IMG/VR virus record: IMGVR_UViG_3300033074_000984
Strand: one strand, 5' to 3'
Origin: a virus
Lineage: Duplodnaviria; Caudoviricetes
DNA length: 64,000 nucleotides
Positions within the stretch are counted from its first letter, which is position 1; every line of letters begins with the position of its first letter. Positions 23,402 through 31,928 of this stretch are shown piece after piece. The position numbers and the translations under genes were made by a program. The notes below the pieces were generated by a model. That model ran no database searches, was not told the origin of the DNA, and saw nothing but the letters and a program-made list of their open reading frames with translations.

Positions 23402-23785
23402 GTGATTGCTATGAGATGGGGAGTGCCCAATGACGACTGGAGTCCGGCGTGGGCCTGGTTGCCCGTGGTTTTGACAGACGGCACTTGGTACTGGCGTGGC
23501 CCTGTAGAGAAGCTCAGCTACTGGAGTCGAAAGATCTCCAGCAGCACGCCGTCGATCTTTTGGACCTGTTACCGCTTGCCACAAGACGCTGACCCGAGTG
23601 TCGGCGTTCGATGGGGTCGAGACAAGCACCGCTGGTACAAGGTGTTCGCCTGGCTGCCAGTGCATCTTGAGGGTGGCGGCTGGGCCTGGCTCGAGCCGGT
23701 CTACAAGACCCACTGGCGCAACAGAGACACCATGAGCGTTGGAAGCGTCTTTGGTAACGTGTATCGAGCAGTCAATGAAGAATGA
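23402..23785 (+). CDS. Trp-rich hypothetical protein with internal duplication
   Basis: AWLPV.L..G.W.W..PV occurs twice; promoter TTGACC-17-TAAGAT. Confidence 0.6.
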   Translation: MIAMRWGVPNDDWSPAWAWLPVVLTDGTWYWRGPVEKLSYWSRKISSSTPSIFWTCYRLPQDADPSVGVRWGRDKHRWYKVFAWLPVHLEGGGWAWLEPVYKTHWRNRDTMSVGSVFGNVYRAVNEE

Positions 23786-24816
23786 GCGCGTGGGTAGACA
23801 AGAAGTACGCGATGCGTCTCGCGGGAAGGTTAGAGCTCTTTAAAGTAAAGAGCTCTGAGCCGTTTCTCGCCAACTTTCGTTGTCCCATCTGCGGCGACTC
23901 GCGCAAGAGCCGCTTCAAGGCGAGAGGCTACTTCTACACGAAGGGTGACGCTGTCAAGTTCTCCTGTAAGAACTGCGGCGAGAGCATGTCGATCAAGAGC
24001 TTCGTTCGTCAGATAGACCCAGGCCTCTATGACGAGCTGGTGCTCGAGACGCTCGTTAACGACAAGCAGCACGAGCCGTTGGTGTCAGAGCTGCCACGAC
24101 TCTCGACGCCGACTAGCAAGCTCGTGTCTGACCTAGACGCCACCCCTCTCAGTCGTCTTTCAAAAGACCACACCGCATGGCGGCTGGTGACGACTCGCAA
24201 GATACCAGAAGAGGTTGCAAGCGAGTGGTTACACACTGAGCACTTCTACGCAACGACTAACGCTCTGACACCTGACAAGTTCAACGAGGAGCAGTTGAAG
24301 AGGGATCACCCGAGGCTAATAATCCCCTTCACACGTGACGGCGCGTTGGTTGCGTTTCAAGGTAGGTCATACTCGTCTGACAATCGAGCCAGGTACATCA
24401 TGATAGTGCTCGACAAGTCTCGGTCGATAGCTTATAACATCGATCACGTTCGTTGGGACTTGCCGGTAATCGTGCTCGAGGGGCCGATCGACGCGAGCTT
24501 CTTGAGCAACGCCGTGGCCGCTGCTGGCTCAGAGCTGGTCGCCTGCGAGCGCAGGCTTCGCCTCGAGGTGCTAGGAGCGCGAAGCGCTCGAATCGTTCTC
24601 GCCTTCGACAACCAGCCGAGACACAAAGAGGTTATGAAGAAGGTGCGAGCGGCGGTGAACTCTGGCCACGAGGTGTGCTTCTGGCCGAAACATATAGAAG
24701 AGAAAGACGTCAACGACATGATCCTGGCCGGCATGACCGCCGCAGAGGTAGAGTCGATTGTACTTGACAACGCAAAGAGCGGCCTCGCTGCTCAGGTGGA
24801 GTTGATGGTAGCATGA
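23782..24816 (+). CDS. 61: DNA primase (gp61)
   Basis: NFRCPICGDS..CKNC Zn finger, IIPF, QGR, EGPIDA, FDNQP, KDVNDM. Confidence 0.95.
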   Translation: MSAWVDKKYAMRLAGRLELFKVKSSEPFLANFRCPICGDSRKSRFKARGYFYTKGDAVKFSCKNCGESMSIKSFVRQIDPGLYDELVLETLVNDKQHEPLVSELPRLSTPTSKLVSDLDATPLSRLSKDHTAWRLVTTRKIPEEVASEWLHTEHFYATTNALTPDKFNEEQLKRDHPRLIIPFTRDGALVAFQGRSYSSDNRARYIMIVLDKSRSIAYNIDHVRWDLPVIVLEGPIDASFLSNAVAAAGSELVACERRLRLEVLGARSARIVLAFDNQPRHKEVMKKVRAAVNSGHEVCFWPKHIEEKDVNDMILAGMTAAEVESIVLDNAKSGLAAQVELMVA

Positions 24817-26069: not shown

Positions 26070-26345
26070 TTGGTCCACACAAGAGAGCAGCTCATCAGCG
26101 ACCTTCGATCAGGCGTGCTTGAGATACGCTACAGGAAGCCGGATAATCAGGTCGCGACAATCAAGGGAACTCTCAATCCCACAATCGTACCCGAGGGCGC
26201 CAAGGCCATCATCGCCCGTGAGCAGGCGACTAACGAGTCGATTCGAGACGTCGCAAACGTTCTCATCTTCGACATCATCGCGCGTGACTTCAAGACGCTC
26301 ACCGTAGCTCGCGTAGAAGACGCTCAGTTCGTGCAGACGTTCTGA
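26070..26345 (+). CDS. Hypothetical SH3/WYL-like protein
   Basis: L..GV.EI.Y.K.D.....GTL..FD....FK pattern. Confidence 0.55.
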   Translation: MVHTREQLISDLRSGVLEIRYRKPDNQVATIKGTLNPTIVPEGAKAIIAREQATNESIRDVANVLIFDIIARDFKTLTVARVEDAQFVQTF

Positions 26346-26821
26346 TGCGTGAAGAAGCGGGTTTCGGCTCTGGCCTCGTTGCTGGCACGTTTGACCTGGC
26401 ACATCCTGGACACGTGCTTCTTATACAGCACTGCGCTCGGATGTGCAGCACGCTCTTTGTTGCGCTCCAGACAGACCCGACCATCGACAGACCGGAGAAG
26501 AACAAGCCAGTAGAGACGACGTTTGAGCGATACACTCGTCTGTCTGCTATGACAGGCGTGTTCACGGTCATACCGTACGACACCGAGAGAGACCTCGATA
26601 ACATGCTGAGGTCTCGGCTCTTTGACGTTCGGTTCGTCGGCGACGATCACCAGGAGAAGCTCTCTCACGTCGAGGCCTGTTCAGTTGCTGGCGTCGAAAC
26701 CGTAATCGTGCCGAGACTTCACGACTGGAGCTCGAGCGCTCTCAGGTGCAGGGTGCTTGACGCGTTCGAGTCAGAGGTCAGCTCCAAAGTAACTGCAAAG
26801 ATGTCAGGGGTAAGCGATTGA
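26345..26821 (+). CDS. HxGH nucleotidyltransferase (TagD/HldC-like)
   Basis: AGTFDLAHPGH, LQTDP..RPEKNKP..ER, GDD, RLHDWSSS. Confidence 0.85.
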   Translation: MREEAGFGSGLVAGTFDLAHPGHVLLIQHCARMCSTLFVALQTDPTIDRPEKNKPVETTFERYTRLSAMTGVFTVIPYDTERDLDNMLRSRLFDVRFVGDDHQEKLSHVEACSVAGVETVIVPRLHDWSSSALRCRVLDAFESEVSSKVTAKMSGVSD

Positions 26822-27444
26822 CTTGGGACACTAACACGTTTGACACCAAAGACAGTCACGCTGCGCGCTTCATGCGCGGCGCGGCTGAGATAGCGACTAT
26901 GCTTGCCGGCGCTCCCGCCATGATAAACGTCATCACCGACGTCCTGCATTGCTGTCGGCAGCGCGGGGCTCGCGTGTTCGTGATCGGCGTGGGCGGGAGC
27001 GCGGCCAACGCAAGTCATCTCGTCAACGACCTACGAAAGCTGTGTGGCATAGAGGCGTACTCGCCAACCGATAACGTGTCGGAGCTCACAGCGCGCATAA
27101 ACGACGACGGGTTCAACGACGCGTTCGTGTCATGGCTAACGACCAGTCGATTCAGCGCAGCTGACGTGCTGTTCGTTCTCTCTGTAGGAGGCGGCAGTCG
27201 TACAGCGAAGGTGTCCGAGTGCATCAGCAACGCAGTGCTATATGCGTGGCGGATAGGCGCTGTAGTGACCGGCATCGTCGGCAAGTATGACGGAGACGCT
27301 GTGAAGTACGGCGACGGAAAGGTCGTCGTGGTGCCGGAGATCGAGAAGTCGCTCGTCACTCCGTACTCTGAAGCGTTTCAGGCGCTGATATGGCACTGCG
27401 TCGTCAGTGACCCCAGCCTTCAAAGGACCTCAACGAAATGGTGA
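26818..27444 (+). CDS. gmhA: SIS-domain phosphoheptose isomerase
   Basis: IGVGGSAANASH..ND, ELTARINDDG, LSVGGGS, EAFQ..WH. Confidence 0.85.
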   Translation: MTWDTNTFDTKDSHAARFMRGAAEIATMLAGAPAMINVITDVLHCCRQRGARVFVIGVGGSAANASHLVNDLRKLCGIEAYSPTDNVSELTARINDDGFNDAFVSWLTTSRFSAADVLFVLSVGGGSRTAKVSECISNAVLYAWRIGAVVTGIVGKYDGDAVKYGDGKVVVVPEIEKSLVTPYSEAFQALIWHCVVSDPSLQRTSTKW

Positions 27445-27968
27445 GGGCGGTGTTCTGGGACAGAGACGGCGTGCTTAACGCTCCTGTTCTTCGAGCTGAC
27501 GGTAAGTTCACCGCGCCATGGAAGAGAGACGAGTTTCAAGTTCTGCCAGGGGCGATCAGTGCGTTGCACCTCACGGCTGAGAACGGCTTCTTGAACTTCG
27601 TAGTCACTAACCAGCCAGACCTTCATGACACTCTCGCTCTCGACACCCTGATGCACTTCCACACTCTGCTTCAGGGTCTCGCGCCTATAACCGATATCAA
27701 GTACGCGAGTCAGCGCGGGTCTCCGTTCTACAAGCCCAACCCGGGCATGATACTGGAGATCGTTAAGCGGTACTACGTCAACGTCAGCGAGTCATTCATG
27801 GTGGGTGACAGCTGGCGAGACATGGAGGCTGGCGACAGGGCTGGGCTTACGACCATCTTCATTGACTCGGGAAGAGAAGATGCGGCGCTTGTCAAGTTCG
27901 CCATACGAGCAGAGAGCGCATTTTACGCAGCTAACAAGCTGTTACGCAGAGCAGGAGTACCCGCATGA
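27438..27968 (+). CDS. gmhB: Heptose-1,7-bisphosphate phosphatase (HAD IIIA)
   Basis: DRDGVLN, VVTNQ, KPNPGM, MVGDSWRD. Confidence 0.88.
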   Translation: MVRAVFWDRDGVLNAPVLRADGKFTAPWKRDEFQVLPGAISALHLTAENGFLNFVVTNQPDLHDTLALDTLMHFHTLLQGLAPITDIKYASQRGSPFYKPNPGMILEIVKRYYVNVSESFMVGDSWRDMEAGDRAGLTTIFIDSGREDAALVKFAIRAESAFYAANKLLRRAGVPA

Positions 27969-28738
27969 AACTGTTTATAGACAGCGCAGACCCAGAAGAC
28001 GTCATAGCTGCCACAAAGGACGGCGACAGCATAAAGGAGGCTCTCAACAACCACATCTCTGGCGTGACGACCAACCCCACACTCATTAAGCAGTACCTCG
28101 ACTCTCGAAAAGAGTCCTATAACGCTGATGGGGTGTATATGGACTATGTCACGGCGTTTACTAGAGCGCTTAGGTCTGTCTTGCCAGAGGGTTGCGTCTC
28201 GTTCGAGGTGACGTCTCGAGACAAGATTCGCGCCTTCGGCGAGGCCATAGCTCTTCGAGACGTCGGGCGTGAGACGAACTATCAAGTGTACGTCAAAGTT
28301 CCGTTCTATGCCGGCTTCGACCCCGAAGACAACGTCAAGCTGATCGGCGAGCTGAGTCGTAGAGGGGTCTTTGTCAACGTCACCGCCGTGACTAACGCCG
28401 AGCAGGTGCGCCGCGTCTTCGACGTGCTAGACACTGGCACGCCGTCAATAGTGTCCATCTTTGCTGGAAGGATAGCTGACGCCAGCTTGCCACCAGCACC
28501 ACTTTTCAGGTGTGAAGCTGCTCCTTCCTTGTGTGAAACTCTATGGGCCAGCTCGCGTCAGCCGTACTCGTACTTCGAGGCCCTTTCGGCTGGAGCAAAC
28601 ATCGTCACGATGACGCCGAGCATGCTCTCCAAACTCGTCAACACAACCATTCAATTCGCTGATGACATGAACAAGTTCGCAGCAGTCACTGCGGAGATGT
28701 TCTACACAGATGCAGGAAAAGCCGGACTCTATCTATGA
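27965..28738 (+). CDS. tal: Transaldolase
   Basis: LFIDSA, GVTTNP, VKVP (Schiff-base Lys), VNVT, SIFAGRI, LWASSR. Confidence 0.88.
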   Translation: MKLFIDSADPEDVIAATKDGDSIKEALNNHISGVTTNPTLIKQYLDSRKESYNADGVYMDYVTAFTRALRSVLPEGCVSFEVTSRDKIRAFGEAIALRDVGRETNYQVYVKVPFYAGFDPEDNVKLIGELSRRGVFVNVTAVTNAEQVRRVFDVLDTGTPSIVSIFAGRIADASLPPAPLFRCEAAPSLCETLWASSRQPYSYFEALSAGANIVTMTPSMLSKLVNTTIQFADDMNKFAAVTAEMFYTDAGKAGLYL

Positions 28739-29763
28739 CCGCTTTTGAAGAGAACGAGGTGTCTGTCACAGCAGCTGGTGGCACGGAGATCGCTAAGAGG
28801 ATGCTTGAGAAGCGCCTCGACCCCGAGCTTCTCAAGCACTTTCAGATCGTGAGCTCTCGAGTGCGAGACCTCGACGAGTCAAAGATCCGCATCTACTGGG
28901 CTCACGACCTCCCTGGTGACCCGGAGTGCGCGTTCCTCTCTGATCACAACTTGCGATCTAGGTTCCACAAGCTCGTGTTTGTGAGCGACTGGCAGTACCA
29001 AGCGTTTCGAGTGGTGCACAAGCTGCCGTGGTCGAGGACGTCTACAGTCATCGTTTCTGGCGTTGACACGATAGACGCTCGTCTCGACCAGAAGAGCCGC
29101 GAGGAGATTCATCTCTACTACGCCTCCACGCCCAATCGAGGGCTAGAGATACTCCTCGCGGTCTTCGAGCGTCTTGCACAGAAGTGGCCGCAAGCGAGAC
29201 TGCACGTGCACTCGAGCTTCAAGATCTACGGCTGGGAGGACCATGACAAGTCGTTCGAGCCGCTCTATGACCGCGCCCGAGCGCACCCGCAAGTGACGTA
29301 TCACGGACTCACGTCGCACGACGACCTCGCTGAGGCGATTAAGGGGTACCACATTCTCGCTTACCCCTGCACGTGGCAAGAGACCAGCTGTCGCGTACTG
29401 ATCGAGGCCATGTCTGGGCTGTGCATGCCGGTTCACCCGAACCTCGGGGCGCTGCCAGAGACGTCGGGCGGACTGACCCTCATGTACGACGGTGACTCTG
29501 ACCCTAACACCCACGCTCAAGAGTTCCACTCAGCGCTTGACGCAGCTGTCTCTCACGTCGCTGCTTGGCAGAAGGGCGACGCTCACGGCCTAGACTCTAG
29601 GCTGGCTCTTGTCAAGGCGTACTCTGACACCAAGCACTCGTCTGACCTCGTGACAAAGCAGTGGGACGTCTTGTTACGCAACCTGCTTGCTGCGTATCCG
29701 ACAGAGGAGAGTCGCAGGTCTCCGAAAGCCATGTTCTATTACGACACGTCGGAGGCTCAATGA
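28735..29763 (+). CDS. GT-B (GT4-like) glycosyltransferase
   Basis: GGTE, WAHD, FVSDWQ, STPNRGL, YP..ETSC..IEAM..GALPE. Confidence 0.88.
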   Translation: MTAFEENEVSVTAAGGTEIAKRMLEKRLDPELLKHFQIVSSRVRDLDESKIRIYWAHDLPGDPECAFLSDHNLRSRFHKLVFVSDWQYQAFRVVHKLPWSRTSTVIVSGVDTIDARLDQKSREEIHLYYASTPNRGLEILLAVFERLAQKWPQARLHVHSSFKIYGWEDHDKSFEPLYDRARAHPQVTYHGLTSHDDLAEAIKGYHILAYPCTWQETSCRVLIEAMSGLCMPVHPNLGALPETSGGLTLMYDGDSDPNTHAQEFHSALDAAVSHVAAWQKGDAHGLDSRLALVKAYSDTKHSSDLVTKQWDVLLRNLLAAYPTEESRRSPKAMFYYDTSEAQ

Positions 29764-30746
29764 TCGTTTCTAAGACGCCCTTGCGTGTGTCGCTGTTCTG
29801 TGGAGGCAGCGACATGCCGTGGTACTACTCAAAGTTCGGCGGAAACGCCCTCTCAATGGCCATTGACAAGTACGTCTATGTCAGCATCAATCGCACTCCG
29901 TACACCGGCGTGCGTACGATGTACGACCAGACGGAGGACGCGGTAGACGCTGAGGGTCTCAAGAACGTCATCGTTCGAGAGACCCTCAAGAAGTACGAGA
30001 TGCCTCGAGAGGTGACTGTAGCAAGCGTTACAGACGTACGAGCGCATGGAGCGGGACTCGGGTCGTCAAGCACGTTTACTGTAGGCCTCGTAGCTGCGGT
30101 GAAGCGCGCACTCATCCCAGACCTCGACTACTTCAACCCGTTCTATCTCGCTGAGAGCGCTGTAGACATCGAGATCAACCGGTGCGGATACGCCATCGGT
30201 AAGCAGGACCAGTACGCTGCAGCGTTTGGCGGCGTCAACTTCTTCCGCTTCAAAGAAGACGGAGAGGTCACTATTCGATCTCCAGGTGCGCTGATAGACG
30301 GCGCGATGGAGCTTCAAAAGAACCTCATGCTCGTGTACTCAGGCAGCTCTCGATCTGCAGACGACATACTGAGGCGACAGGCGGCTGAGGCGCTGTCTGA
30401 CCCCGACAAGCTGTCTCGCATCAAGCGAAACGCTGAGCGCGCTCTTGAAGCGACTTACTCTCTCGAACACGGGGACGTGCTCGTAGTCGGTCAGCTCTTG
30501 AACGACGCCTGGAGAGACAAGAAGCTGTCGGTGTCCGGCATGACCGACGATCGGTTTGACGCGATCTATGACCGAGCCATGGAAGCGGGCGCTGTTGGCG
30601 GCAAGCTTCTTGGCGCAGGGGGCGGCGGGTTCTTTCTGTTCTATGTAGAGCCTGACAAGCAAGCCTCAGTAGCTCGAGCGGTGTCTCCGTGTCTTGTCTA
30701 TCCGTTCTCGATCTCTCTTCAGGGCTGTCAGTGCTATGAGATATGA
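29760..30746 (+). CDS. hddA: GHMP-family D-glycero-alpha-D-manno-heptose-7-phosphate kinase
   Basis: KTPLRVS..GGSD, GAGLGSSS, GKQDQYAAAFGG, GGKLLGAGGGG. Confidence 0.88.
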   Translation: MIVSKTPLRVSLFCGGSDMPWYYSKFGGNALSMAIDKYVYVSINRTPYTGVRTMYDQTEDAVDAEGLKNVIVRETLKKYEMPREVTVASVTDVRAHGAGLGSSSTFTVGLVAAVKRALIPDLDYFNPFYLAESAVDIEINRCGYAIGKQDQYAAAFGGVNFFRFKEDGEVTIRSPGALIDGAMELQKNLMLVYSGSSRSADDILRRQAAEALSDPDKLSRIKRNAERALEATYSLEHGDVLVVGQLLNDAWRDKKLSVSGMTDDRFDAIYDRAMEAGAVGGKLLGAGGGGFFLFYVEPDKQASVARAVSPCLVYPFSISLQGCQCYEI

Positions 30747-30885: not shown

Positions 30886-31074
30886 ATGAAACCGTTGATC
30901 CAGCACCCTGACACCGCCCTGGGCATCCTCAATGACATCGCTTGCTACGTAGACGACGCTAGGACGGCGATCGCTAAGGACGACCTCTATGACCTCCACC
31001 TAGCGTTGTGGAGCGCCATAGAGCGCGCGAGAGAGACCATTCTACTAACCGGTCCGGTAGGAGTGATTCGTTGA
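30886..31074 (+). CDS. Hypothetical protein, probably leaderless
   Basis: TTGACC-17-TATAAA at 30851-30879, ATG 6 nt later. Confidence 0.55.
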   Translation: MKPLIQHPDTALGILNDIACYVDDARTAIAKDDLYDLHLALWSAIERARETILLTGPVGVIR

Positions 31075-31928
31075 TAATCCTGGACTATAACCAGACGTTC
31101 ATCTCTGCCGCCGTCGCTCATTCAAGGATCACCGGCGCTACTGGAACAGATGAGTCTCTGTTACGTCACATGGCTCTCAACACGATAAGAGCTGTAAACG
31201 TGCGGTTTCGTGGCTCAGACGGTCGTCTCGTTATCGCAGCTGACCACAACAAGTCATGGCGATCAGGCGTCTTTCCGTACTACAAGGCTAATCGGAAGAG
31301 CCGCTCCGCGTACAAAGACGGTCTCGGCATCGACTGGACCGTCCTGTTCTCCGTGATGGACGAGGTGCGCGAGGGCCTCGAGCAGTACTTCGCTTATCCT
31401 GTCATCCGTGTCGAGGGCGCTGAGGCCGATGACGTAATCGCCACTCTCGTAGAGGCCATAGACGGCACCGAGAGCGTCATGATAGTCTCGGGCGACCATG
31501 ACTTTTACCAGCTTCAAGCGTTTCCTAGGGTCTCACAGTACGACTGGGTGCACAAGAAGAGCGTCGCGTATGACGTCGACCCATTCACCTACCTACACGA
31601 CCACGTCATTCGCGGCGACCCTGGCGACGGCGTGCCAAACGTCTTCTCCGAAGACGACGTGTTCGTGAACCCTTCAGCGAAGAAGACGAGGGTCACGCCA
31701 CGAAAACTGGCTCTCGTGTCGCCAGCACTGTCAAGCACCGACCCGACGATTGAGAGTCGACTTCGTAGGAACGAGACGCTCATCGACTTGAACTTCACGC
31801 CTGCACGAATAAAGGACTCGATTCTCTCATGTCTTGCGGCGCAGGCTAACAAAGACGGCGCTGAGGCGTATAGGTATCTTACGCGCCACAATCTCAGACG
31901 GCTCTACGAGAGCCTGTCTGACTTCTGA
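31071..31928 (+). CDS. rnh: T4-type RNase H (5' nuclease)
   Basis: ILDYNQ, SWR..PYYKANR, EADDVIA, SGDHDF.QL, GDPGDGVPN. Confidence 0.92.
   Translation: MIILDYNQTFISAAVAHSRITGATGTDESLLRHMALNTIRAVNVRFRGSDGRLVIAADHNKSWRSGVFPYYKANRKSRSAYKDGLGIDWTVLFSVMDEVREGLEQYFAYPVIRVEGAEADDVIATLVEAIDGTESVMIVSGDHDFYQLQAFPRVSQYDWVHKKSVAYDVDPFTYLHDHVIRGDPGDGVPNVFSEDDVFVNPSAKKTRVTPRKLALVSPALSSTDPTIESRLRRNETLIDLNFTPARIKDSILSCLAAQANKDGAEAYRYLTRHNLRRLYESLSDF

Follow-up and report, generated by a model that had tools for sequence, protein, structure and literature searches.

A predicted heptose activation and transfer operon in a T4-like phage and its possible acceptors

The DNA analysed here (hereafter the window) is a stretch of 64,000 nucleotides from a virus of the Caudoviricetes (IMG/VR record IMGVR_UViG_3300033074_000984). 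A group of six sugar-related genes within it raises the question of what activated sugar they would make and which acceptor would receive it. A sequence-only reading of the window had described these genes as overlapping and located between the primase and RNase H genes. This is borne out, as all six are present in the sequence on the + strand at 26345-30746, in the order and families proposed, with a revision only to the start of the kinase gene. The primase (23782-24816; phrog_47 at 6e-60) was confirmed on their 5' side and the RNase H (31008-31928) on the 3' side. Three genes separate the primase from the operon: one DprA-like, one for a SegE homing endonuclease, and the first ORF listed below.

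26070-26345, + strand: 91-aa ORF, its stop codon overlapping the start of the next gene; phrog_1086 (unknown function) at 4.6e-8
26345-26821, + strand: sugar-1-phosphate nucleotidyltransferase (NTase) of the cytidylyltransferase (HxGH) fold, predicted last activation step (PF01467, TIGR02199, phrog_7878)
26818-27444, + strand: GmhA-like SIS isomerase, its TTG start overlapping the NTase stop codon (weak NCBIfam and PDB matches to GmhA)
27438-27968, + strand: GmhB-like HAD-IIIA phosphatase (TIGR01656, 76 bits; NF006506 GmhB, 68 bits)
27965-28738, + strand: small-type transaldolase (PF00923 TAL_FSA, 90 bits; TIGR02134, 107.7 bits; phrog_440)
28735-29763, + strand: phage-specific retaining GT-B glycosyltransferase of the GT4 type, predicted heptosyltransferase and anchor gene (PF13692, PF00534, phrog_2170)
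29760-30746, + strand: HddA-type GHMP kinase, start revised within ORF 29661-30746 to ATG 29760 (NF049969 HddA, 141 bits)

Organization and spread of the operon

Every junction within the operon is an overlap of 4 nt (ATGA/TTGA) or 7 nt, and the six genes are predicted to form one translationally coupled unit that would both produce and use an activated heptose. The order NTase-SIS-HAD-transaldolase-GT-kinase recurs in most of 80 T4-like contigs from IMG/VR, and its conservation across dozens of contigs that are independent of one another means that it did not arise by chance. The heptose operon is thus not peculiar to the source phage but common among T4-like phages that are uncultured. Reduced forms, viz. 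NTase-GT-kinase, HAD-GT and GT alone, are also observed, and a dispersed version, parts of which are already annotated, is found in the Caulobacter phage Cr30, where it comprises the NTase, GmhA, HddA and GT-B, together with a GT-A (see below). The GT-only variants are nested among clades with the full operon and HddA was not found in phage DLP6; the glycosyltransferase can therefore use another donor. In the closest relative (L008) a 90-aa gene occupies the place equivalent to that of the 91-aa ORF, whose membership in the heptose system is uncertain.

A predicted six-step pathway to a transferred heptose

The best relatives of every enzyme in the operon are enzymes of heptose pathways, and homology and gene order make it probable that the six genes specify a six-step pathway of NDP-heptose synthesis and transfer. 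The logic earlier proposed, in which the transaldolase feeds GmhA, the kinase, GmhB and the NTase, and these the glycosyltransferase, fits both these relatives and the translational coupling. The transaldolase, which in comparison with PDB 1wx0 and 1vpx retains TTNPT, the Glu of S.EV and the Schiff-base Lys of VKVP, is predicted to supply sedoheptulose-7-P from fructose-6-P and erythrose-4-P. The GmhA-like isomerase would then convert this into D-glycero-D-manno-heptose-7-P. The sole NCBIfam matches of this SIS protein are GmhA models (35.7 bits, far under their cut-offs), its sole PDB matches are phosphoheptose isomerases (top 1tk9, 2.3e-5), and its alignment shows the GmhA-type TD..S.LTA..ND.GF and GGS motifs. 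In the third step, phosphorylation at C1 (alpha anomer) by the kinase would yield D-glycero-alpha-D-manno-heptose-1,7-bisphosphate. This protein contains all three GHMP motifs and its PDB matches are of the HddA type (4usm, 3.1e-39; 3k85, 1.8e-38; 4n3o, 6.6e-35), with fucokinase next at 2e-11. As only residues from 34 onwards are aligned, the gene probably starts not at 29661 but at ATG 29760, which overlaps the GT-B stop codon (ATGA). Removal of the 7-phosphate to give heptose-1-P is predicted for the GmhB-like phosphatase, whose top PDB matches are all GmhB structures (3l8h, 4pnh, 3l8e, and 2gmw) and which contains the motifs DRDG, TNQ, KPNPGM, and GDS.RD; it lacks the Cys loop with which E. 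coli GmhB binds Zn.

In the fifth step, the NTase would activate heptose-1-P with an NTP to an NDP-heptose, CTP or UTP being as plausible as ATP. It matches PF01467 (CTP_transf_like, 37 bits), TIGR02199 (rfaE_dom_II, 47.6 bits) and phrog_7878 (4e-25), its score being far under equivalog cut-offs, and its AF2 model (pLDDT 91.5) has a fold like that of TagD/Fom1/HldC, which fails to discriminate between ECT, TagD, and HldC. Its motif is HPGH (H20-P-G-H23), and R124 lies five residues ahead of S129-S-S; an Arg so placed ahead of an STT-like motif is tied to CDP-/UDP-heptose synthesis by Tang et al. (Science 2024), as related in PMC11461863. The sequence-only reading had also called this enzyme set a hybrid, and this holds genome-wide: a search that included the rest of the genome for HddC detected neither an HddC-type/NTP_transferase (PF00483) family member nor a PfkB kinase in the whole 161 kb, and the pairing of kinase and NTase is therefore a hybrid one. 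Both the nucleotide and the anomer of the donor sugar are what we infer.

The last step, transfer of the heptose by the GT4-type retaining GT-B, is predicted to form an alpha-heptoside. This protein matches PF13692 (Glyco_trans_1_4) and PF00534 (Glycos_transf_1) above cut-off and phrog_2170 at 3.8e-36, and it contains the motifs GGTE and EX7E (E216-x7-E224). The top Foldseek matches of its AF2 model (pLDDT 86) are TarM, SdgB, BA1558 (2jjm), HepE, PimA, and BshA. More than 1100 proteins belong to its family, the Atlas clusters of which are 94–99% viral.

Partner genes and candidate acceptors

Two partner genes of the GT-B were identified outside the window. The first, a phage GT-A (phrog_1574), lies directly upstream of the sliding-clamp gene, to which it is translationally coupled, and 4-nt overlaps join it to DUF3310 and a C5-methylase-like gene of the gp42 cluster, as is also seen in a relative (G003). 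It is fused to GT-B in one genome (P0258; E 6e-40), adjoins it in HTVC027P, HTVC023P, and AG-345-L05, and is present in all cultured phages holding GT-B; judged by this fusion, adjacency and co-distribution, the two proteins are functionally tied. The second, a methyltransferase-fold protein, is the first gene of the operon in relatives. The three proteins may jointly build a short heptose-containing glycan. The sequence-only reading saw no hydroxymethylating enzyme, which is correct for the window, but a search of the rest of the genome for hydroxylase-type genes revealed a T4 gp42-type dCMP hydroxymethylase (E 2e-77 to PDB 1b49), accompanied by a MazG-like protein, DUF1599, a dCMP deaminase and a TAGT/phrog_842 DNA glycosyltransferase.

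The likeliest single acceptor is the phage's own hydroxymethylcytosine DNA (5hmC or a sugar already on it), and to this explanation as a whole we assign, tentatively, a probability of about 0.35. It is favored by the presence of the gp42 cluster with TAGT in the same genome, in which the T4 alpha-GT and beta-GT families have no match, by the overlaps that chain GT-A, tied to GT-B, into this cluster, and by the location of both GT genes in the replication module. The NTase of the Agathobaculum phage AB434P2, 43% identical to ours, is flanked by an APH-like kinase and a TS-like hydroxymethylase, and the almost exclusively viral GT-B family has an acceptor-side N-domain that is conserved (about 40% identity) between phages of gamma- and alphaproteobacteria. 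Mono- and di-heptosyl-5hmC are formed by a HAD/kinase, a CTP-transferase and a GT4 GT-B (Pyle et al., 10.1101/2023.12.21.572611). However, in phiM12, RHph_I1_18, and OspM_OC, which are complete and carry the GT-B/GT-A pair, no gp42, Tet_JBP or divergent TS-like enzyme was found, and HTVC027P, which also has the pair and was checked for Tet_JBP alone, lacks that family. The hydroxymethyl-base loci have transferases of their own (in TET-type relatives a set of amino-acid:DNA transferases, in this genome TAGT), and there is no vacant role that would require GT-B. The operon is unchanged whether it accompanies a cytosine-type or a thymine-type modification cluster, the GT-B family is acidic (pI about 6), and its top fold matches include neither the alpha-GT nor the beta-GT of T4. 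The GT-only variants and the lack of HddA in DLP6 also count against this explanation, as do, for the pathway itself, the weak scores, far under equivalog cut-offs, behind the GmhA and NTase assignments.

It is possible, though doubtful, that the same pathway serves a protein, most plausibly of the virion, on which GT-A, GT-B and the methyltransferase-like protein would build a short, possibly methylated, heptose O-glycan; this would resemble the capsid/tail glycosylation of mycobacteriophages or the capsid glycan enzymes of chloroviruses. The GT pair is kept in phages without a detectable hydroxymethyl-pyrimidine route, so that an acceptor common to all of them could be something other than a modified base. 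Fusions to GT41 (OGT-like) domains, to DXD GT domains or to GT25 recur among true members of the GT-B family (profile E 1e-64 to 1e-88), and the Atlas structure search with GT-B retrieved a 970-aa GT41 fusion, although one GT41 fusion sits in a eukaryote- or giant-virus-like context. The acidic pI, the protein O-glycosyltransferases SdgB and GtfA among the top fold matches, and the methyltransferase-fold partner of the two GTs are also consistent with a protein acceptor, and glycosylated mycobacteriophages possess gene sets of two GTs plus a methyltransferase. In contrast, both GT genes are part of the early/replication module and do not lie by structural genes, GT-A is translationally coupled with the sliding clamp, neither a repeat motif nor a protein that might be the acceptor was identified, and T4-like myoviruses and HTVC027P-type podoviruses have few structural proteins in common.

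An envelope glycoconjugate of the host (LPS core, O-unit, capsule/EPS precursor) is an unlikely acceptor for the same pathway; in this reading the phage would remodel the surface during infection, and thereby block superinfection or keep its progeny from sticking to debris. The rfaE and GT genes of pelagimyophages have been read in this manner (PMC7029224), and GT4 enzymes with lipid-linked or envelope acceptors (PimA, PglA/PglH, HepE) are among the fold matches. The cultured hosts of phages with the GT pair are mostly Alphaproteobacteria, plus Stenotrophomonas. Many rhizobial and xanthomonad LPS cores are not known to contain heptose; the phage would supply its own because many alphaproteobacterial and xanthomonad hosts would have no heptose supply, and a self-contained pathway from central metabolism would suit such hosts. 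However, the GT-B family is virus-exclusive and not host-derived, its acceptor domain is conserved across very different hosts whereas the surface glycans of hosts differ from strain to strain, and the genes lie within the replication module. Furthermore, this is a lytic, T4-like phage, and neither a membrane-anchoring segment nor a flippase partner was seen.

It is very improbable that the true substrate of the NTase is glycerol-3-P or ethanolamine-P, in which case no NDP-heptose would be made, the GT would draw on a nucleotide sugar of the host, and the remaining genes would be unrelated metabolic helpers. In favor of this reading, the family profile of the NTase is nearer to ECT (2.5e-26) and TagD (1.4e-16) than to HldC (5x9q, 2.8e-12), its fold is non-discriminating, and GT-only variants occur. 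However, the donors of GT4 enzymes with the EX7E motif are NDP-sugars and not CDP-glycerol. Furthermore, the NTase, GT and HddA-type kinase stay linked in reduced operons, a member of the same NTase family adjoins NDP-sugar dehydratases and epimerases in the cyanophage S-B43, and heptosylation by contig 53 of Pyle et al. needed its CTP-transferase.

Comparison with known systems

The preferred reading, a heptose pathway acting upon 5hmC DNA, resembles contig 53, a phage 5hmC heptosylation cluster (Pyle, Lund, O'Toole, and Saleh, 10.1101/2023.12.21.572611; Cell Rep 43:114631, 2024, according to PMC13229309), all three genes of which are required for 5-heptosyl- and di-heptosyl-methylcytosine. 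The enzyme classes that both contain are the HAD phosphatase, the sugar kinase, the NTase of the cytidylyltransferase fold and the retaining GT-B of the GT4 class, and the GT-B of contig 53 (GT53) is alike in its fold neighbours, BshA (3MBO) and 2jjm. However, contig 53 has an APH-like kinase in fusion with its HAD domain, whereas the kinase of the operon is separate and of the HddA-type GHMP family; contig 53 drew heptose-7-P from E. coli, whereas the operon adds its own GmhA and transaldolase. The GT53 gene (429 aa, compared with 342 aa for the operon GT-B) adjoins genes for a TET enzyme and a C5-methyltransferase, which points to post-replicative 5hmC, whereas here 5hmC would come from gp42, whose gene is far from that of GT-B. 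Because Pyle et al. (2024) have already described heptosyl-5hmC made by enzymes of similar classes, the earlier description of a candidate new glycosylation system is too strong.

In the bacterial GDP-D-glycero-alpha-D-manno-heptose pathway (GmhA, HddA, GmhB, HddC; capsules and S-layer glycans), the isomerase, GHMP kinase and HAD steps match, the operon kinase matches solved HddA/WcbL-type structures (E about 1e-39), and a retaining GT4 transferase suits the alpha-linked donor. The operon differs in its added transaldolase, in the replacement of HddC (NTP_transferase fold), which is nowhere in the genome, by a cytidylyltransferase-fold enzyme, and in scores that are all far under equivalog cut-offs. 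With the ADP-L-glycero-beta-D-manno-heptose pathway (GmhA, HldE or HldA+HldC, GmhB, HldD) and the cross-kingdom HENase NTases it has in common the HxGH fold and, as far as PMC11461863 relates Tang et al., the Arg noted above. It is without a PfkB kinase and its predicted anomer is alpha, not beta. The same account reports virus-encoded NDP-heptose enzymes and describes the phosphatase as absent from viruses, whereas this operon has a GmhB-like gene.

The arabinosyl-cytosine pathways of RB69, DLP3, and HY126 (AfhE/AfhF; PMC13326640, PMC6024577) are likewise NDP-sugar syntheses of T4-like phages, which proceed from a pentose-phosphate intermediate through isomerase, kinase, HAD phosphatase and NTase steps to a sugar placed on modified cytosine. 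Their sugar is, however, a pentose, a single bifunctional protein with different folds serves as both kinase and NTase, and their isomerase is KdsD/API-type and not GmhA-type. Lastly, the T4 alpha-/beta-glucosyltransferases and the T2/T6 beta-glucosyl-HMC-alpha-glucosyltransferase are similar in the location of their genes in the replication module of a phage that produces 5hmC via gp42, and the T2/T6 family (phrog_842/TAGT) is itself represented beside gp42 in the source genome. The operon GT-B matches neither PF11440 nor PF09198, and, unlike the operon, these glucosyltransferases use UDP-glucose of the host and need no genes for sugar synthesis.

The predicted heptose operon and its enzymes

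The window corresponds, in reverse complement, to the final 64 kb of the 161,065-bp virus record (CheckV completeness 95%), and its + strand encodes a family B DNA polymerase, a gp41-type helicase, an intein-bearing class II ribonucleotide reductase, a primase, RNase H and gp32. The heptose operon therefore belongs to a replication module of T4-like type. The region 26345-30746 is occupied by six + strand ORFs, which are joined by 4-nt overlaps (ATGA or TTGA) and one overlap of 7 nt, and the six-gene operon described in the sequence-only reading was thus confirmed. The kinase ORF as listed has a GTG start at 29661; its start was taken as 29760 because every alignment starts only at residue 34 and an ATG at 29760 overlaps the stop codon of the glycosyltransferase gene.

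Genes of the heptose operon (window coordinates, strand, assignment)
26345-26821, +, nucleotidyltransferase (NTase) with an HPGH motif and a cytidylyltransferase fold
26818-27444, +, GmhA-like SIS isomerase, matching phosphoheptose isomerases only, and weakly (35.7 bits, far under the cut-off)
27438-27968, +, GmhB-like HAD phosphatase, closest solved relatives GmhB phosphatases (GmhB 68 bits, far under the cut-off)
27965-28738, +, transaldolase, Schiff-base lysine and catalytic glutamate both kept
28735-29763, +, GT4-type retaining glycosyltransferase (GT-B) with GGTE and EX7E motifs and GT4 fold matches
29760-30746, +, HddA-type GHMP kinase (PDB 4usm, 3k85 and 4n3o, E 3e-39 to 7e-35)

The scores of these enzymes are far under the NCBIfam equivalog cut-offs throughout, and the assignments are based upon homology together with gene order. 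The solved relatives of the kinase are HddA/WcbL-type heptose-7-phosphate kinases, the runner-up family, fucokinase, reaching only 2e-11, and its best NCBIfam family is NF049969 (HddA; 141 bits, under the equivalog cut-off of 600). The SIS and HAD proteins matched no relatives other than GmhA and GmhB, respectively, with low scores and with the characteristic motifs kept. The best NCBIfam match of the NTase is rfaE_dom_II (47.6 bits versus a cut-off of 181.5), and a profile built from 25 of its orthologs ranks ECT and TagD above HldC. This protein has an arginine five residues ahead of the S-S-S motif; heptose nucleotidyltransferases with such an arginine can use CTP and UTP, as a commentary (PMC11461863) relates of the work of Tang et al. 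(2024).

The predicted structure of GT-B (AF2 model, pLDDT 86) has the two-Rossmann GT-B fold, and its best Foldseek matches are the GT4 enzymes TarM, SdgB, 2jjm, PimA and BshA (E ~1e-11, TM ~0.6); the alpha- and beta-glucosyltransferases of T4 were not among the top fold matches. Its Pfam scores are 30.2 bits for PF00534 (cut-off 26.4) and 31.4 bits for PF13692 (cut-off 27). In the C-terminal EX7E motif, 28 sequences show no change at either glutamate (E216 and E224), and both are also kept in phages DLP6, Cr30, phiM12 and HTVC027P.

Within the 161-kb genome no match was found to the NTP_transferase fold of HddC (PF00483) or to PfkB kinases (PF00294), the search controls for both being positive in 14/14 genomes. 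Hence, the hybrid enzyme set that the sequence-only reading had proposed, with an HddA-type kinase beside a cytidylyltransferase-fold NTase, is real. The pathway proposed in that reading is well supported. The operon contains no epimerase (no HldD-type gene among its genes). The hybrid set would yield an NDP-D-glycero-alpha-D-manno-heptose, and this sequence-based prediction places the product outside the two textbook donors, whatever the acceptor.

A SegE-type GIY-YIG homing endonuclease (window:25646-26059; PF19835, 1.1e-35) is located just upstream of the operon, where relatives have a methyltransferase-like gene adjoining the NTase. Between primase and SegE is a 211-aa gene (window:24813-25448) with a match to the DprA-like recombination-mediator PHROG phrog_768 (8.9e-13). 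The class II (B12-dependent) ribonucleotide reductase (window:20041-23343) is split by an intein that contains an HNH endonuclease, and the phrog_1574 gene elsewhere in the genome likewise bears an intein, with a LAGLIDADG endonuclease. Promoter and terminator scans gave chance-level results, and TATAAATA was not found anywhere in the window. The motif ATAAATA precedes the starts of several genes by 14-75 nt (window:734, 15312, 16444, 19979 and 58403 on the + strand and 57698 on the - strand) and has a strong strand bias in the genome (5 versus 23 sites). This motif may represent the core of the clade's late promoters, and none lies ahead of the heptose operon.

Distribution of the operon and its partner genes

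At E <= 1e-10 the GT-B family numbers over 1100 members; in the Atlas, its clusters are 94-99% viral. A comparison of 80 IMG/VR loci and two assemblies against the proteins of the window indicated that the order NTase-SIS-HAD-transaldolase-GT-kinase, followed by RNase H, is found in most of them. Reduced forms were also observed (NTase-GT-kinase, NTase-HAD-GT-kinase, HAD-GT and GT alone), and in a quick tree of the glycosyltransferase these are nested within clades possessing the full operon. In one reduced case the kinase is elsewhere on the contig, and the complete genome of DLP6 contains no HddA-like kinase. In Caulobacter phage Cr30 the glycosyltransferase gene is grouped with genes for an HddA-like kinase and a GmhA-like protein, with an epimerase adjoining and the NTase a few kb off. 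In the operon of the closest relative, the GT of which is 67% identical, an inserted Tad3-family gene (PF25185; L008:11062-11406) separates the GT gene from the kinase gene. A scan of viral contigs with a single kinase protein found nothing, but an alignment-based scan did find loci. The HddA-like genes on human-faecal 'Bacteriophage sp.' contigs were set aside as uninformative, their surroundings resembling bacterial polysaccharide loci.

A profile search identified natural fusions of the GT-B family with other GT domains; a word search for longer fused forms retrieved one intein-bearing copy only. In one fusion, P0258, the context of which is limited to a 2-kb contig, GT-B is joined to a domain that shares 32% identity (E 6e-40) with a phrog_1574 protein encoded outside the window. 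This GT-A-like protein (hereafter GT-A) has a DXD-type motif, FIDSD. It adjoins GT-B in the pelagiphages HTVC027P and HTVC023P and the marine virus AG-345-L05, it was found in every cultured phage with GT-B (DLP6, Cr30, OspM_OC, RHph_I1_18 and phiM12/M7/M19/N3), and it is always directly upstream of the sliding-clamp gene, being in phiM12 the sole gene between gp46 and gp45. Based upon this adjacency, co-presence and constant site, GT-A is considered to be tied to GT-B. A second partner is a 274-aa protein, for which a class I methyltransferase-like fold is predicted (a lead only) and homologs of which directly precede the NTase in the operons of many relatives. These two partners therefore extend the functional unit beyond six genes. 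A link through a GT-A-type gene and a methyltransferase gene neighbouring the system in DLP6 was dropped, as neither has a homolog in the present genome.

Base-modification clusters and the acceptor

The interval between gp46 and gp45 (G000:C1:about 31.9-41 kb of the whole genome; L007:2910-12359), outside the window, is a packed cytosine hypermodification cluster.

Genes of the gp46-gp45 cluster of the 161-kb genome
NDT-like gene
peptide deformylase
MazG-like pyrophosphatase
DUF1599
gp42-type dCMP hydroxymethylase, about G000:C1:38.2-38.9 kb (E 2e-77 to 1b49, T4 gp42)
dCMP deaminase
UDG-like gene
TAGT-family DNA glycosyltransferase, also matching the T2/T6 beta-glucosyl-HMC-alpha-glucosyltransferase PHROG (phrog_842)
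C5-methylase-like gene, 400 aa
DUF3310
phrog_1574 protein (GT-A), intein-split
274-aa protein, methyltransferase fold predicted

The genome thus encodes a hydroxymethylase but no HddC. A C5-methylase-like enzyme is encoded in the cluster although the phage has a 5hmC route already. The genome lacks Tet_JBP; gp42, in turn, is missing from the near-complete relatives that have the full heptose operon, and the same locus there encodes a Tet_JBP dioxygenase, a GATase, a GNAT, a ParB-like protein and an amino-acid:DNA transferase. Phages with either base-modification cluster have thus kept the heptose operon. Together with an amidoligase-like gene, these genes constitute a thymidine hypermodification set of a composition that has been described (PMC13229309), in relative G004 (L095, G004:C1:57000-75000) and at the same locus in G001, G002, DLP6 and Cr30. 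The dioxygenases are 440-470 aa long, those of Cr30 and DLP6 being annotated as 'SNF2 DNA repair protein'. A different locus, preceding Pol III alpha in Agathobaculum phage AB434P2 (L102, 1-8835), encodes in a row dUTPase-like, dNMP-kinase-like and APH/choline-kinase-like proteins, a cytidylyltransferase, two unknowns of 328 and 361 aa and a TS-like hydroxymethylase; it has the appearance of a pyrimidine hypermodification cluster of sugar type, as yet uncharacterised.

DNA is a tentative choice of acceptor, to which we assign a probability of roughly one in three. The phage makes 5hmC through gp42, its genome has no match at E <= 0.01 to the T4 alpha- and beta-GT families (PF11440 and PF09198; these searches had no positive control), both GT genes are in the replication module, and GT-A is translationally chained into the cytosine-modification cluster. 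In addition, heptosyl-5hmC is the product of a published phage cluster with these classes of enzyme (Pyle et al., 2024), and an NTase 43% identical to that of the operon lies beside a hydroxymethylase in an unrelated phage. However, the GT pair is also present in phiM12, RHph_I1_18 and OspM_OC, where no gp42, Tet_JBP or divergent thymidylate-synthase-like enzyme was found, and in HTVC027P, which lacks Tet_JBP, the only one of these enzymes searched for there. The base-modification clusters also possess transferases of their own, the isoelectric point of the acidic GT-B counts weakly against DNA binding, and no DpdA was found in any genome searched. A 7-deazaguanine DNA as the shared acceptor was rejected, TGT/DpdA being found in 0/10 genomes and FolE in RHph_I1_18 only.

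Either gp42 or Tet_JBP is present in all genomes that have a close GT homolog and are sufficiently complete. Co-occurrence with these enzymes as a functional link to GT-B was nonetheless rejected: the Tet_JBP cluster of G004 is self-sufficient and remoter phages with the GT pair have neither enzyme. Inheritance within the clade at a gp46-gp45 hot spot is the best reading of this pattern.

A protein-linked glycan is slightly less probable than a DNA acceptor; in its favour are the methyltransferase partner and the fusions of the GT-B family to domains of GT41 type. Transfer to the envelope is unlikely, and some other acceptor more so. We regard as more doubtful again, and as a speculative proposal, that a single conserved system for building glycans, situated in the replication module, unites the heptose module with the virus-exclusive GT-B, the clamp-linked GT-A and the methyltransferase-like protein. 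This system would act on the same nucleic-acid or replisome-associated target, and on no known hydroxymethyl base, in phages with 5hmC, TET-made 5hmU or neither, and would represent a type of phage glycosylation that has yet to be described.

Should DNA receive the product, a T4-like phage using the gp42 pathway would for the first time be seen to have a complete route leading from central metabolism to a heptosylated base; this route would not depend on sugar nucleotides of the host and would bear on the evasion of restriction, CRISPR and type IV defence and on the sequencing and cloning of such DNA. If it goes elsewhere, the conserved GT-B/GT-A pair would represent an unexplored glycosylation function common to rhizobial, Caulobacter, Stenotrophomonas and SAR11 phages. 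As cultured phages hold the system (Cr30; DLP6 and phiM12 for the GT pair), its acceptor is a directly testable question.

Comparison with known systems

The GDP-D-glycero-alpha-D-manno-heptose pathway (GmhA-HddA-GmhB-HddC) shares with this operon the HddA-type kinase but not HddC, whereas the ADP-L-glycero-beta-D-manno-heptose pathway shares the HxGH fold of the NTase but not the PfkB-family heptose-7-phosphate kinase. As in the 5hmC sugar-hypermodification clusters of the type described by Burke (2021) and Pyle et al. (2024), a 5hmC route is present in the same genome; however, in those clusters the glycosyltransferase adjoins a C5-methyltransferase and TET, whereas GT-B here is not adjacent to base-modifying genes, being ~90 kb from gp42 on the contig, and within the gp42 cluster the only glycosyltransferases are its partner GT-A and the TAGT-family enzyme. 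The sequence-only reading had proposed a candidate new glycosylation system, and this holds only in part: the system is a previously unassembled variant, but it is widespread and belongs to known phage sugar-nucleotide and glycosylation modules rather than being categorically new.
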